Shown: positions 21,896 through 58,449 of the stretch, piece by piece
How the letters are laid out: each line of letters starts with the position of its first letter
Position numbering within the stretch: position 1 is the stretch's first letter
Virus record (IMG/VR): IMGVR_UViG_3300045747_000505
Strand: one strand, 5' to 3'
DNA length: 64,000 nt
Source of the DNA: a virus
Taxonomy: Duplodnaviria; Caudoviricetes
Notes under the pieces: model-generated
Told to the model about the DNA's origin: nothing
The model's database searches: none
What the model saw: only the letters and a program-made list of their open reading frames with translations
Translations under genes and position numbers: made by a program

Positions 21896-21927
21896 CCTGA
21901 AGACTGAGACATAGAGTAAAATACAGA

Positions 21928-22256
21928 CATGGGTGCTACAGCCATTCTGTAGTGATTGTTGTAATTCGGAGCAAGTTGAAGGATTCTGGACGCGGGTTCG
22001 ATTCCCGCCAGGTCCACCACAAAACACATACCGCCGGCTGTAGAATTCGGCAACACCTTAGGGACGATCCACGTGGTGTGTGTTTTGTAATGGGCCTGAC
22101 CTGGTCTCGACAGGGTTACGGAGATGCGCACACGCAACACGAGAGTCGACCGACGTAATCGGCGAAAACACGCTAAGTGCAAACGAAGCAAACTTCCGTC
22201 TGGCTGCTTAATACCCAGCTCACGGTGAGGCTAACCACCTTATAAAGCAACGGTGA
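21928..22256 (+). ncRNA. ssrA: Circularly permuted two-piece tmRNA, tag (A)ANEANFRLAA
   Basis: T-arm plus CAGGTCC-ACCA end at 22019 and precede the 5' end GGGCCTG at 22092. The 7-bp acceptor has G3:U70. Tag ORF is 22179-22211. Outer ends are approximate. Confidence 0.9.
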
Positions 22257-22282
22257 GGACAGGACACTTCGGTGTCCTGTCC
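22257..22282 (+). terminator. Hairpin closing the tmRNA gene
   Basis: ggacaggacac-ttcg-gtgtcctgtcc. Confidence 0.7.
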
Positions 22283-22306
22283 GCTATCATTTATACTGGA
22301 GACCCT

Positions 22307-22795
22307 ATGCGCAAGCTGCTCGCCGCTCTCATGCTCACCCTCTCGCTGGGCGCTGCTGCCCAGTCGGAGCCGCATGTTCAGATCGGCGCAGCAGACTTCA
22401 CGGTCTTCAAGGTCTATCCGAACTTTGCGCTGCTCTTCGACCGCGAGTCGATGCATGGTGATGCCAACACCGGCGACGCGGTGATGACGATCAAGATTCA
22501 CCTGAAGTCCCCAGACCCAAGGCTCGTGCCGAAGTTTCCGGTCAAGTTCCTCGTCAACACTCTCTTCATCGAGTGCGAGAAGGATCAAGTCACGGTGCTG
22601 GTCAGCCAGATGTATGACGATGAGAATGACCTCGTCGGCATTCGTCGATACTACCCGCCCATTTCGAACCCACACTCAGAAGGTGCGCCGGCCACTGAGG
22701 TCCTCGACTTCGCCTGCGCCTCGAATCCGAAGTACCCGAACAAGCGTAACACGCCTATAATTGTTACACCTGACGATGACCGGAATGGTGTATAA
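22307..22795 (+). CDS. Secreted hypothetical protein
   Basis: SD GGAG, signal peptide MRKLLAALMLTLSLGAAAQ, two Cys. Confidence 0.65.
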   Translation: MRKLLAALMLTLSLGAAAQSEPHVQIGAADFTVFKVYPNFALLFDRESMHGDANTGDAVMTIKIHLKSPDPRLVPKFPVKFLVNTLFIECEKDQVTVLVSQMYDDENDLVGIRRYYPPISNPHSEGAPATEVLDFACASNPKYPNKRNTPIIVTPDDDRNGV

Positions 22796-22816
22796 TAGCC
22801 TCATGGAATCACAAAA

Positions 22817-22891
22817 GCGTCGTTAGCTCAATGGTAGAGTACGGGCCTCTAAAACCCAGGGTTATCGGTTCGATCCCGATACGACGCACCA
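22817..22891 (+). tRNA. tRNA-Sup(CTA), amber suppressor with a Lys-like body
   Basis: GCGTCGT/ACGACGC acceptor, loop CT-CTA-AA, TTCGATC T-loop, A73, CCA. Confidence 0.85.
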
Positions 22892-22912
22892 CCTCTTTTC
22901 AAGGAACCCAAA

Positions 22913-23206
22913 ATGTCTCTCTACGATCGCATGCCCCGCACGTCTGGCGAGAACATCGCCAACCGTCTCGCCTCGCAGAAGCTGAGCACCGACATGTGGG
23001 TGGGCAAGTTCGACAAGTGGCCTGATGGCTGCGGTGTTCGCAACGCCTCGCTCGCCCTCGGCAAGTGGATGGGCCTGTACGAAGCGCTCGGTCAGATTCA
23101 GCCTGAGCTGATCACGCAAGAGATGCAAGCCACGATGCGCGTCTACGCTGACGCCTGGGAGCGCATCGAGAATGTTCCACTTCGCCAGTACGAGCGGCTT
23201 GCGTGA
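22913..23206 (+). CDS. Hypothetical protein
   Basis: SD AAGGA, typical codon usage. Confidence 0.65.
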   Translation: MSLYDRMPRTSGENIANRLASQKLSTDMWVGKFDKWPDGCGVRNASLALGKWMGLYEALGQIQPELITQEMQATMRVYADAWERIENVPLRQYERLA

Positions 23207-23770
23207 AGGGTCTCAGTCCACTCGGCCTCGTCAAGGATCATCACATTGATCGAGGTCCGTGGGCGATTCGAATTGGGCAGATGCTGAAGGACGTTGGGCG
23301 ACAAGTGTTGCCCATCTCGAATCAAACGGTGCTGCCGGTGCTGACTGACATCGTCGAGGACGAGTTCGTTGCCACCGTGCCAACGATCGACAAGCACGAA
23401 GTTGGATTTCAAATTGGGGACATGGTGCTACCAAATGATTGAAGTCATCAAAGCAAGAGACAAGGCCGTGTGGAAGGTCAAGCTCGACAAGAAGCTGGTC
23501 GGTGAGATTCGCTTTCTCAATCCAGGCTTTCAGTACTTTCCGCGTGGCTCGAAGGAGGGTGGCGGTGTGCTGCCCTCGCTGAACGCCGTCATCAAGTCGC
23601 TCGAGGACTATTCCTGAACCTAAACAAATCGATGTACAAGTCCTAAGGACAGTGTACAATAGGAACTGTTGAGAAGCTCACAGTGGTGAGCAGTATCTTA
23701 GATAGTTGGCATAGACCGGGACCCCGTTGTCGCCCAGCCACAAACGACGACATCAACTAGTGAGATGATC

Positions 23771-24151
23771 ATGTAGATCCGCACTTCCAAAACCTACCTC
23801 TACGCAATCACACGCCGCGATCTCCCACTCGCGCAACAGGCTGTTCAAGCTGGCCACGCCGCCATTGAGCACGCTTACCAACATGGTCGTCCGCACGATC
23901 ATCATCCGTCGTACATCAAGCTGACGACGCGAGACAAGGCCGCTCTTCTCGAGCTTCAGGCCACGCTTGCCACGCACGGCATTCAAACCGCAGAATTTCA
24001 CGAGCCATACAAAGCTTGGGGCCTCACCGCAATCGCCTGTCTTCTCGGCGAGGAACAACGCTGTCTGTTACGACAGTTACAGCTTTGGACCACGCAGAAT
24101 GCTCAGGTTCGTGATACAATGGACACATCAACCACTCGGAGTTTCTCATGA
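23771..24151 (+). CDS. Pth2-type peptidyl-tRNA hydrolase-like protein with an in-frame TAG at codon 2 (not in the ORF track)
   Basis: Manual translation M*IRTSKTYLYAITRRDLPLAQQAVQAGHAAIEH...FHEPYKAWGLTAIAC; ends in an ATGA overlap with 24148. Confidence 0.75.
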
Positions 24152-24627
24152 CTCATCCCCTCGTTACCAAGTGCCTCGCCGCTCAGGCCGAGGTCGACAG
24201 CATCGTAGCCCTGCTCAAGGGAAATAGCAAGCACCAGATCGACATCATGAAGGAGCTCATCGAGCGCGCCGACATGCCCGAGATCAAGCTGGACAAGCGC
24301 TTCGCTGGTCTCTTCAGCTACGACTACATCGAGATCGAGGTCTCCAGCGCTGGCCGCGCCTCCTTCAGTGTCTGGGAGGATGCCTACGCCGATATCCCGG
24401 AGGAGAACGTCGGTGAGTTCGACCTCAGCGAGCACATCCTCGACGGTCGTGACGACGACTTCCGGCTCGAGTACGAAGCCTACGTGGCTCGGATCGCCGA
24501 GGCCTTTCGTGAGCGCGCGTGGATTCAGCGCGACGCCGAGATCGCTCGTGCTCGCGCCACCCTCGACCAGCTCGAGCGGCAGCGCGAAGCCATCATCGCC
24601 CACGGCCCCATCAGGATCAAGTCATGA
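24148..24627 (+). CDS. Hypothetical protein
   Basis: SD GGAG; promoter inside the 3' end of the Pth-like gene. Confidence 0.7.
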   Translation: MTHPLVTKCLAAQAEVDSIVALLKGNSKHQIDIMKELIERADMPEIKLDKRFAGLFSYDYIEIEVSSAGRASFSVWEDAYADIPEENVGEFDLSEHILDGRDDDFRLEYEAYVARIAEAFRERAWIQRDAEIARARATLDQLERQREAIIAHGPIRIKS

Positions 24628-24870
24628 ACCTCGCCGAAGCACAAGCCGCCCACAAGGCTGCGATCGACCTGCGAACCGAGCTGTGGCGCCGGGTTCCCAA
24701 GACCATTCAACTACCCGACTGGCGCGATGAGGGTGAGTTCGACACCTTCGAGCTGTACCACATCGACGCCATTGGTCTGACGGCCAGCTATCGCATGTAC
24801 ATCGGTCGCAATGAGTACGACTACTCTGCGGCCCAACCAATCATCCTCACCGAGCTCTTCAAGGACTGAC

Positions 24871-25344
24871 ATGACCACCTTCACCATCATTCACCTCACG
24901 CCGGCCTCGAACAGGGACTGGAGCGGCGAAGATCAGAGCTACATCACTCAAGAAGCTCAGACCCGAATCGACATCACACGCGTCATCGAGCGCGCGGCCG
25001 ACTTCTGGATGGACGGCATCAAGAAGGCCGGCCATGAGAAGAACACGTTCATCCTCATCAACGGTCGCGAGCCCGAGGACTATCCCTACAACCAGGACGT
25101 GGACGTCAACGACTACCTCGACGATGACCCCTACACTCCCGAGGAGCTGGGCGACTACGCTACGCTTCGCGCCATTGTGAACGCAAAGGTCGACGACTGG
25201 AAGGCCGAGAAGGCCGCAGCTGAAGAAGCCGAACGTCAACGCCTCGCAAATCTGGCTGCTGCAAAGGCTCGTCAAATCGCTCAGATGCAGCGTGACAAGG
25301 ACGAAGCCGACTTTCAGCTGCTCAGGCGCAAGCTGGGCAAGTGA
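24871..25344 (+). CDS. Hypothetical protein with coiled-coil C-terminus
   Basis: SD AAGGA before the ATG at 24871. Confidence 0.6.
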   Translation: MTTFTIIHLTPASNRDWSGEDQSYITQEAQTRIDITRVIERAADFWMDGIKKAGHEKNTFILINGREPEDYPYNQDVDVNDYLDDDPYTPEELGDYATLRAIVNAKVDDWKAEKAAAEEAERQRLANLAAAKARQIAQMQRDKDEADFQLLRRKLGK

Positions 25345-25397
25345 TCACAACCGTCCGCGCACTTCTAATAGCATTAGTTGGCAAATAAGGAATTGCA

Positions 25398-25490
25398 ATG
25401 ATCTAGGTAAACGCAGTCGCTCGTGGTCCTCCGAGGTTGAATGACACATTCACGGTTCATTCACTTCACATTTCAAGGATCACATCATGA
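25398..25490 (+). promoter_or_regulatory. Candidate leader ORF ATG-ATC-TAG; readthrough gives MI*VNAVARGPP... and couples to 25487
   Basis: SD AAGGA; frame stays open after TAG until a TGA overlapping the ATG of 25487. Confidence 0.5.
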
Positions 25491-25873
25491 CCAAGCTCTA
25501 CGACAATCTCTACGCCGAGTTCTCCTTCACCTCCCGTGAGGAGTATCTCGAGGCATCCAAGCGCTGGAAGGCTGACTACGCTCAGCGCTCAGCGAACATT
25601 CGCACCACCCGTGCCGCCTTCAAGGCCGCGCAGCGTGAGGTCTCCAAGGCCGAGCTCGCGTTCGACGGCAAGCCGCTCTGGCACCTCGACTACGACAACC
25701 CAGCGCGCAAGGCTTGGGTTGCAGCGTCCAAGCCGATGGCCGAAGCCATGTACGCCCTTCGGGATCAGCGTCGCATGGCAGTGCTCATGCTCGAGGTTCG
25801 CTCTGGCATGAAGTGCGAGGCTGGCAATCAGCGTGAGCTGCGTCTTCAGGACGAAGCGCTGAAAGCGGCTTGA
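25487..25873 (+). CDS. Hypothetical basic helical protein (SREEYL...WKADY)
   Basis: SD AAGGA, 128 aa. Confidence 0.7.
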   Translation: MTKLYDNLYAEFSFTSREEYLEASKRWKADYAQRSANIRTTRAAFKAAQREVSKAELAFDGKPLWHLDYDNPARKAWVAASKPMAEAMYALRDQRRMAVLMLEVRSGMKCEAGNQRELRLQDEALKAA

Positions 25874-25952
25874 CATAGGACAACCTTGTGATAAATACTG
25901 ACGGTCGAACCTAAACTCGACCGTCAGTACAACTAATCTCAAGGACGCTCCT

Positions 25953-57629: not shown

Positions 57630-58050
57630 TGGCTGACACACCGAACCTGCACAAGACCATGGCCGCTGACGACAAGCTGGCTTCGATCATGACCAAGCTT
57701 GAAGCGAACATCGCAGCTCTGAAAAAGGCGGCTGCCGCTGTCGAGAAGCCGACGATGTTTCAAGTTCGGATGGTTGAGCAAGCGTCGAAGGAGCTCGAGC
57801 ACCTCGCGACGGACCTTCACTCGCGACAGCGAGTTCGGTGATGATTCTCACCATCCCATGCTCGCCAGAGCAGACTGACGTCATCGCTGATCATCTCATC
57901 TACGAGAAGGTGCTTGGCGTTCAGCCTGACGAGCGAGCATGGATGCTGGCGCAAGCGCGCAAACAATACCCAACCTGCAAGATTCGAAAGGCGGATCTCG
58001 ACCTCGAGAACGCCGAGTGGATTTTGACTCTAGACTCATAGGAATACGCC

Positions 58051-58449
58051 ATGGCTTCAGTTCAGCAAATGATTGAGACGGACGTCAGCGTTCTGCTTCT
58101 GCGCGCGCTCAACAACAAGACGCTCGTTGCCTTTGGCGACGACGGCCTTGGCAAGTATGGTACTTGCGACATGCCGCAGTACTATGCCGTCCATGACCTC
58201 GACATCTCGGTCGACATCAACGAGGCGGATGACACCGCCGCCGGTGTCGTGTACATCGAGTTGGCCGGCTATGACGCTGCGCGCTTCGGAGCCATCACCA
58301 CAGATCGGAACTTTCTGCTTAGCGTTCAGGAGCAGCTCGAAAGCGTTGGAATCGATCGTTCTGTGTTGACTTACGCCCCAGACGGCAATCATCTGGAGTA
58401 CGGCGTGCTGATGTCGATCGATATCAAGAAGTTGTTGGATTGGCCATAA
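58051..58449 (+). CDS. Hypothetical protein
   Basis: SD AGGA, 132 aa. Confidence 0.6.
   Translation: MASVQQMIETDVSVLLLRALNNKTLVAFGDDGLGKYGTCDMPQYYAVHDLDISVDINEADDTAAGVVYIELAGYDAARFGAITTDRNFLLSVQEQLESVGIDRSVLTYAPDGNHLEYGVLMSIDIKKLLDWP

Follow-up and report, generated by a model that had tools for sequence, protein, structure and literature searches.

The DNA analysed here (hereafter the window) is a 64,000-nucleotide (nt) stretch of a virus genome (Duplodnaviria; Caudoviricetes; IMG/VR record IMGVR_UViG_3300045747_000505), and the element of interest is the 142-nt leader region that precedes a gene for a 128-residue protein (25487..25873, + strand). The leader contains a mini open reading frame (ORF) that ends in an early amber codon, beyond which the same frame encodes Arg-Gly-Pro-Pro (RGPP) in a segment that pairs with the Shine-Dalgarno (SD) sequence of the 128-residue protein gene. 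We propose that the leader is a translational switch that senses stop-codon readthrough and unmasks this SD by means of a paused ribosome, a reading to which we give about an even chance of being correct. The anatomy of the leader and its conservation over five lineages were observed in silico. The steps that would make it a switch, namely readthrough of the TAG by a phage tRNA, pausing of the ribosome at Pro-Pro, and activation of the gene by that pause, are inferred.

Anatomy of the leader

The mini-ORF, which we propose as the gate of the switch, is ATG ATC TAG (Met-Ile-amber; 25398..25406, + strand, with the ATG at 25398-25400, the ATC at 25401-03, and the TAG at 25404-06). A possible SD, AAGGA (25388..25392), lies 5 nt 5' of its ATG, and the resulting AAGGA-N5-ATG ATC TAG has the composition of a two-codon minigene, i.e., an SD, an AUG, one sense codon, and a stop. 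On the + strand of the window (64 kb), 25398 is the sole SD-preceded ATG that is followed by zero to two codons and a TAG and then by a frame open for at least 15 codons. The readthrough part of the leader ORF comprises 27 codons (25407..25490), and its TGA (25488-25490) overlaps the ATG of the 128-residue protein gene (25487-89). With x standing for the TAG, the readthrough peptide would be M I x V N A V A R G P P R L N D T F T V H S L H I S R I T S. Its R-G-P-P is encoded in the mini-ORF frame by CGT GGT CCT CCG (25422..25433), which is the proposed pause or arrest site.

In both the minimum free energy (MFE) and the centroid folds, an anti-SD arm within the R-G-P codons, GUGGUCCU (25423..25430), paired with AGGAUCAC (25476-83) and covered the SD of the 128-residue protein gene, AAGGA (25475-79), which the latter arm overlaps (25475..25483 together). 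Nested within this anti-SD:SD helix was an inner hairpin (25434..25468) that includes 7-bp arms at 25438-44 and 25457-63. An earlier note on this DNA, made from the sequence alone, had named the AAGGA, the ATG-ATC-TAG, the TGA/ATG overlap, the RGPP motif, and the hairpin arms, and each of these was found at the position it gave. The 7-bp hairpin it had described (tgaatga/tcattca) is indeed present in the MFE fold, but the key feature of the leader is instead the anti-SD:SD helix, which the note had not seen. A search of Rfam at E<=1 identified no known RNA family in the leader, and scans of the leader for a sigma-70-like promoter and an intrinsic terminator found neither.

Conservation of the leader in relatives

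Upstream DNA was fetched for 13 members of the family to which the 128-residue protein belongs, and the leaders were compared among members in which this region was at least 90 nt long: the window and L001, L002/L003, L031, L008, and L011, which together represent five lineages. In L005, L006, L009, L012, L013, and L032 the leader was absent or short, or there was an in-frame N-terminal extension of the protein. Every fetched member with a leader of at least 90 nt had the same series of elements: an ATG, zero or one codon, an early stop, four to seven codons, an in-frame Pro-Pro, and an anti-SD arm, the last situated under or just 3' of the Pro codons. With x for TAG and z for TGA, the leaders read M K x V S V S A R G P P ... 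in L001 (gate ATG AAA TAG), M x I S N R G P P P x ... in L002/L003 (ATG TAG), M L z V Y L N R P P stop in L031 (ATG TTG TGA), M K x G N L L H I T G P P ... in L008 (ATG AAG TAG), and M N x N I R I T G P P ... in L011 (ATG AAC TAG). The early stop falls at codon 2-3 in all five lineages (TAG in four, TGA in one), such that an in-frame stop is conserved at homologous loci, as is expected of suppressor-dependent genes.

These features persist over considerable divergence. Protein identity to the window is 88% in L001, 70% in L002/L003, ~53% (local) in L031, 44% in L008, and 41% in L011, and at ~40% protein identity the leaders are otherwise unalignable. In the family tree, which is poorly resolved, the leader-bearing members occupy two parts. 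The conservation upstream of homologues that the earlier note had set out as a check was largely borne out, as the early stop and a Pro-Pro in frame four to seven codons beyond it were each found in five of five lineages. For the RGPP motif itself only a part held: Pro-Pro is kept in all five, but the Arg is a Thr in L008 and L011.

Several properties of the region beyond the stop bear on whether it is translated. Pro-Pro was in the mini-ORF frame in all five lineages. The first Pro codons are CCT/CCC/CCG/CCG/CCA, such that all four codons are used, and the second are CCG/CCT/CCC/CCC/CCT; the Gly codons are GGT/GGT/GGT/GGC. The Gly and Pro codons vary only in their third bases when read in the phase of the ATG. 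There was no ATG, GTG or TTG between the early stop and Pro-Pro in any of the five leader-bearing lineages. If the TAG is decoded, the frame continues for 25-41 codons in four lineages, as far as the main start in the window, L001, and L002 (in L002 past a second TAG after the PPP) and beyond it in L008 and L011. The L031 frame closes at a TAA directly after Pro-Pro. Together, the frame, the wobble-only codon variation, the lack of an internal start, and the open frame suggest that the in-frame Pro-Pro is translated.

Four leaders were each shuffled 20,000 times with their dinucleotide composition preserved. A mini-ORF of the form ATG-(0-1 codon)-TAG arose in 2-4% of shuffles and GGN-CCN-CCN in 0.4-1.4%, and the joint in-frame pattern was found in none of the 20,000 shuffles of any leader. 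A relaxed form of the pattern occurred 16 times over 289 kb, both strands included; eight of these occurrences were the leaders described here and the other eight were inside genes and had no SD.

The immediate surroundings of the mini-ORF differ among relatives. L002 and L031 have SDs of their own (AAGGTG and AGGAG, respectively), and in L008 the ATG of the mini-ORF overlaps the TGA of the upstream gene. As a separate observation, L031 has a tRNA-like T-arm (GGTTCGACTCC; L031:760-840) immediately 5' of its TGA-gated leader; ARAGORN calls no tRNA there, and the T-arm may belong to a degenerate tRNA or a Y-RNA-like module.

The SD-sequestering helix

In all five lineages the SD of the downstream gene was paired with an upstream segment in both the MFE and centroid folds, and the sequences that form these helices are unrelated, an arrangement that is characteristic of erm-type attenuation. 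In the window the 86-nt core had a fold z of -2.55, and the energy of the anti-SD:SD duplex (-14.4 to -16.5 kcal/mol) was reached by ~1% of shuffles. The corresponding helices are UCCUUAG:CUAAGGA in L002 (z -3.9), GAUAGUUCC:GGAACUAUC in L008 (z -2.2 to -2.7), and UGUAUCCU:AGGAUACA in the MFE fold of L011, and in L031 GUCCACCUUAAUGUUU pairs with both the SD and the start codon (z -3.2). Overall, fold z was -2.2 to -3.9 in four lineages and duplex p was 0.001-0.1.

The position of the helix relative to the Pro codons was similar throughout. Measured from the first base of the first Pro codon, the core anti-SD stretch begins at between -5 and +8 nt and ends at +2 to +17 nt, the span that a ribosome with this codon in its P site would be expected to cover. 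By its position, a pause at this codon would place the ribosome on the sequestering arm, again as in erm-type systems. The early stop is 19-35 nt upstream of the core anti-SD arm across lineages, and therefore a ribosome terminating there would leave the helix closed.

Of all the features of the leader, the anti-SD:SD helix has the strongest support, and it is equally expected of a plain SD-sequestering 5' leader, either thermometer-like or with a hairpin opened by a protein or RNA, in which the mini-ORF always terminates and the downstream Pro-Pro is never translated. The mini-ORF would then be a start-stop or minigene element, of which phage lambda provides two-codon examples (bar), and its role would be the parking or recycling of ribosomes or the stabilisation of the mRNA. 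Such an account would also accommodate an early stop that is either TAG or TGA, as expected if any stop suffices. Moreover, a CCUCC-like anti-SD encodes Pro in one frame, and the Pro codons do overlap the helix arm in the window, L002, and L031. Against it, Pro-Pro is in the mini-ORF frame in five of five lineages, the Gly and Pro codons differ only in their third bases, and in four lineages the leader frame continues for 25-41 codons, as far as the main start or beyond. We rejected the idea that Pro-Pro is merely a by-product of anti-SD composition, because the GPP codons of L008 and L011 are outside the anti-SD helix. In addition, the same phage has a conserved protein-coding ORF (discussed below) that can be made only through the reading of an early TAG. 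We consider the plain leader rather unlikely.

The amber suppressor tRNA and the proposed switch

The window is part of the genome of a giant freshwater phage, whose contig is recorded as 273.5 kb, and nearly all genes of the window are on the + strand. The phage has 27 tRNA genes and one transfer-messenger RNA (tmRNA; 21927-22302). One of the tRNAs is an amber suppressor, tRNA-CUA (22817..22891, + strand; ARAGORN anticodon cta; Rfam tRNA 60.1 bits, E 2.5e-11), whose anticodon matches the in-frame stop of the leader 2.5 kb downstream and which is a candidate reader of that TAG. Its top blastn matches in phage records were all annotated as tRNA-Lys. The stop codons of 83 non-overlapping + strand ORFs were TGA in 48, TAA in 25, and TAG in 10, and internal TAG codons were absent from long ORFs, for example one of 1584 residues. 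Since TAG terminates ten of the 83 ORFs and the long ORFs have no internal TAG, the phage uses the standard code rather than a genome-wide TAG reassignment, despite its amber suppressor.

In the off state of the proposed switch, the SD AAGGA (25475-79) would be held in the helix with GUGGUCCU (25423-30), and ribosomes that initiate at ATG 25398 would be released at the TAG at codon 3, ~19 nt before the helix, which would stay closed. In the on state, tRNA-CUA (22817-91) would decode the TAG and the ribosome would proceed to R-G-P-P, where it would pause, either as at other polyproline sequences or in an RGPP-type arrest. The footprint of the paused ribosome would cover the anti-SD arm, so that the SD would become accessible to a second ribosome. 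The leader ribosome of the window would ultimately terminate at the ATGA overlap, and termination-reinitiation coupling may add to expression of the 128-residue protein gene.

Comparison with known systems

Among the closest precedents are translational attenuation of ermC/ermB and the polyproline leader of Salmonella mgtP, in which a paused leader ribosome remodels the hairpin that hides the SD of the next gene. The phage leader resembles these in having a short translated leader ORF and a pause that would open an SD-hiding hairpin, but its trigger would be the competition of suppressor tRNA versus release factor, not the level of an antibiotic, proline, or elongation factor P (EF-P). The bar minigene of phage lambda (AUG AUA stop) is similar to the Met-Ile-stop mini-ORF, but bar minigenes are not known to have a downstream in-frame ORF or an SD helix. 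In prfB autoregulation an early in-frame UGA likewise serves to sense termination capacity, but it does so through a +1 frameshift inside the regulated gene itself.

Stop-codon recoding with suppressor tRNAs in phages (bioRxiv 10.1101/2021.08.26.457843) shares with this phage a tRNA-CUA, a requirement for decoding of an in-frame TAG, and a proposed control of timing. It differs in that the genome here is not recoded and the TAG is in a non-coding leader ORF, where it would act via RNA structure, not inside the regulated protein. Standard-code phages often carry suppressor tRNAs with no known target genes, as stated in a genome announcement (PMC9022506), and the present locus offers a concrete candidate target and mechanism for such a tRNA, in that an early stop would confer on/off control of a gene via an RNA switch. 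In the engineered 'Uaa switch' a TAG is placed in the trp or tna leader peptide and amber suppression controls the downstream genes (PMC6412442, section 6). That switch is synthetic and transcriptional (it acts by rut-site masking), whereas the phage leader is natural and conserved and would act on an SD.

The earlier note had compared RGPP to the arrest motifs of SecM (RAGP) and the RAPP class. Fujiwara et al. 2025 (PMC12992588) reported RGPP to be the most robust arrest motif in the ApcA, ApdP, and SecM contexts, to resist EF-P, and to be under-represented more strongly than any other tetrapeptide across ten major bacterial groups. In the core of the class, R-(A/G)-P-P, residues three and four occupy the P and A sites, respectively, and the Arg is irreplaceable, as all 19 substitutions abolish arrest in ApcA, ApdA, and ApdP. 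In known members the motif is near the C-terminus of small secretory or membrane proteins, and translocation force releases the arrest (PMC12992588). Of the resemblance, the core stood (CGT GGT CCT CCG at 25422-33), but the remainder did not. Arg is present in the window, L001, L002, and L031, and is replaced in the Thr-Gly-Pro-Pro of L008 and L011. The motif is not C-terminal, occupying residues 9-12 of 30, and none of the eight residues that precede it forms a hydrophobic segment. With Thr in place of Arg in two lineages, what is conserved is (G)PP, the unit of a polyproline pause, rather than RGPP. Membership of the RAPP class is only partial: the leader would work like a stalling leader but we do not file it as a RAPP-class member.

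Arrest ORFs upstream of regulated genes are nevertheless also among the closest precedents (ApdA, ApdP, ApcA, SecM, Bordetella CruR, Streptomyces lividans; PMC12992588, PMC10951233, PMC7897499). They share with the phage leader a small upstream ORF with R-G-P-P, a regulated gene directly downstream, and an SD in a helix that would be opened by a ribosome stopped at the Pro codons. Unlike them, the phage leader needs readthrough of a stop at codon 3, has no signal or membrane segment and no release by force, and does not conserve the Arg. These likenesses raise the alternative that the leader encodes a true RAPP/RGPP-class arrest peptide, in which a hard, EF-P-refractory arrest at RGP|P regulates and the amber codon only sets the supply of ribosomes. 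The presence of RGPP in the window, L001, and L002, its standing as the core with the most robust arrest in four tested contexts and as the tetrapeptide most avoided in bacterial proteomes, and the documented occurrence of such upstream ORFs before diverse genes are all consistent with this. We consider it quite improbable, given that every Arg substitution abolished arrest in ApcA, ApdA, and ApdP, whereas the motif is TGPP in L008 and L011 and N-R-P-P-stop in L031, and that the position of the motif and the lack of a hydrophobic segment do not match those of the known secretory and membrane proteins.

A search of the literature found phage genome-wide recoding and engineered amber leader switches (PMC6412442) and did not find a natural leader of this design. 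What is new is the combination of leader-ORF attenuation with phage suppressor tRNAs, both of which are known separately. By extension, and with a confidence that falls just short of even, we suggest that there is a natural class of readthrough-sensing leaders in large phages, in which a suppressor tRNA opens an early stop, a polyproline pause falls on an anti-SD arm, and the downstream gene is tied to the takeover of termination by the phage. If confirmed, the leader would be a natural counterpart of the amber-codon leader switches of synthetic biology, and would extend polyproline/RGPP pausing to phage regulation and provide a new way of timing phage gene expression.

The AAGGA upstream of the mini-ORF and a dispersed element

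The earlier note had taken the AAGGA at 25388..25392 as the SD of the mini-ORF. Its position is suitable, but its selection specifically as that SD did not hold up, as it is part of a dispersed, promoter-like cis element (25357..25395, + strand; core CATTAGTTGGCAAATAAGGAA). In three metagenomes the contigs are broken at 25356-25396, where depth rises sharply and the flanking sequences do not match. The core CATTAGTTGNNNAATARGGAA was found at 12 IMG/VR loci ahead of unrelated sequence, often a hairpin. The element is also upstream of the family gene in L001, L002, L009, and L011, and at other loci it was found with no ATG after it. Because it recurs elsewhere without an ATG, the AAGGA is not selected specifically as the SD of the mini-ORF; the element is dispersed and probably promoter-like, with the AAGGAA within it by happenstance.

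This element, conserved over ~27-40 nt (ATAGCATTAGTTG..AATAAGGAA; window 25357-25395, L011:9-30, L016-L030), is present at low density in this and related phages, and what follows it is often a stable hairpin and not a gene. The element may be a special promoter class or a small-RNA start. The possibility that the motif before the mini-ORF is a general phage promoter was rejected because its density does not fit, there being one copy in the 64 kb of the window and three in a related contig of 116 kb.

Weighing of the proposed switch

A number of points weigh against a readthrough-sensing switch. The five lineages may be conserved copies from one origin and not independent inventions. The contigs of the relatives are 1-5 kb, too short to look for suppressor tRNAs, and the TGA gate of L031 cannot be read by tRNA-CUA; the proposal predicts a tRNA-UCA for this TGA-gated lineage. 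The full 156-nt leader of the window folds weakly (z -0.55), and the L011 helix reaches a z of only -1.0. The nascent chain at the pause would be only 8-12 residues, with no apparent release mechanism for a hard arrest, and the Arg on which such an arrest depends is not conserved, as described above. If transcription starts within or after the dispersed element, initiation at ATG 25398 would be near-leaderless in the window and L011. Finally, the locus was sought in RNA sequencing runs and none contained it.

The remaining alternative, to which we give only a slim chance, is that the leaders share an inherited resemblance without function, or that ribosomes pass the gate without a suppressor tRNA, for example by hopping or reinitiation: the data are purely comparative, the lineages few and possibly monophyletic, and one gate is a TGA, but leaders unalignable at ~40% protein identity still keep the mini-ORF, frame, Pro-Pro, and anti-SD, and hopping from AUC-UAG to AUC-AUG was rejected since its match of take-off and landing codons (AUC...AUC) fits the window only and not L001, L008, or L011.

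The 128-residue protein and its family

The gene that the leader would regulate encodes a member of an unannotated phage family with a predicted two-helix hairpin. AlphaFold2 modelled the protein with a predicted local distance difference test (pLDDT) score of 95.6 and helices at residues 17-59 and 72-127. There were 37 homologues at E<=1e-3, in which Y20, W27, Y31, and R39 are invariant. Searches of Pfam and PHROGs with the protein gave no match, and those of the ESM Atlas, Foldseek PDB, and AFDB clusters returned only a generic helical hairpin. Near-identical DNA was sought in 50,697 phage records and none was found; tblastn of three family proteins (P0001, P0013, and P0008) against the same records also gave no match, such that no cultured phage carries the family. 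Scans of IMG/VR with P0001 and P0007 had no matches, and likewise the first metagenome scan. A degenerate DNA pattern identified 11 further family members, all in branches that have no leader or have an in-frame N-terminal extension. If the switch is confirmed, this conserved, unannotated helical phage protein family would be flagged as likely tied to translation control.

In other branches of the family (L037:226-370, L043:2275-2413, and L005:230-325), an in-frame N-terminal extension of 30-45 residues stands in place of the stop-gated leader. The extensions begin M-x-x-F-S-(F/M)-(L/F)-K, and some have a zinc-ribbon-like motif, CxxC...HxC.

Directly 3' of the 128-residue protein gene is a perfect 13-bp inverted repeat (25897..25929, + strand; arms 25897-25909 and 25917-25929) that has no T-run and was not called by the terminator scan; it is possibly a transcript end or stabiliser. 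A sigma-70-like promoter match (TTGACA-18-AATACT, 10/12) overlaps the stop codon of the gene and leads into this repeat, the two together lying within 25870-25929, and the gene after the repeat encodes a DUF481-like putative outer-membrane protein.

Other stop-interrupted genes of the phage

The protein-coding ORF at 23777-24148 (locus 23765-24151) has its only start upstream of a TAG, in ATG ATC ATG TAG at 23765-76. Homologues of this early-TAG ORF were found in 28 jumbo-phage records, and that of Serratia phage BF, where it is unannotated, opens ATG ACG CAC TAG. The parallel that had been drawn between the opening of the leader and that of this Pth-like gene was therefore upheld, with the early TAG present in the phage BF copy as well, and the ORF supports amber gating as a strategy of the phage. 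Its 'Pth2-like' label is unconfirmed, as Pfam gave no match at E<=0.01.

A short RF1-type release-factor gene (37724-38391; PCRF and RF-1 domains), in which PPT replaces PAT and GGQ is present, is broken by an in-frame TGA (37828-30) at the position of a Trp that is conserved in RF1 and RF2. If our proposal is correct, the leader, the amber-gated Pth2-like gene, the UGA-gated RF1-like gene, the tmRNA, and tRNA-CUA, all within the same 16 kb, would form a regulatory circuit based on stop codons.

The tmRNA, the amber-suppressor tRNA, the early-TAG ORF, and the stop-gated leader with its gene are grouped within 4 kb (21927-25873), and the RF1-like gene is 12 kb beyond this cluster. Two further loci in the window are of note with regard to decoding. 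ARAGORN identified a tRNA-shaped gene at 37334-37406 with a four-base anticodon (agta) and no assignable amino acid. At 57838-58449, a 67-residue ORF stops at a TAG (58039-41) and a 132-residue ORF (58051-58449) follows in the same frame 9 nt on, such that amber readthrough at 58039-41 would join the two.

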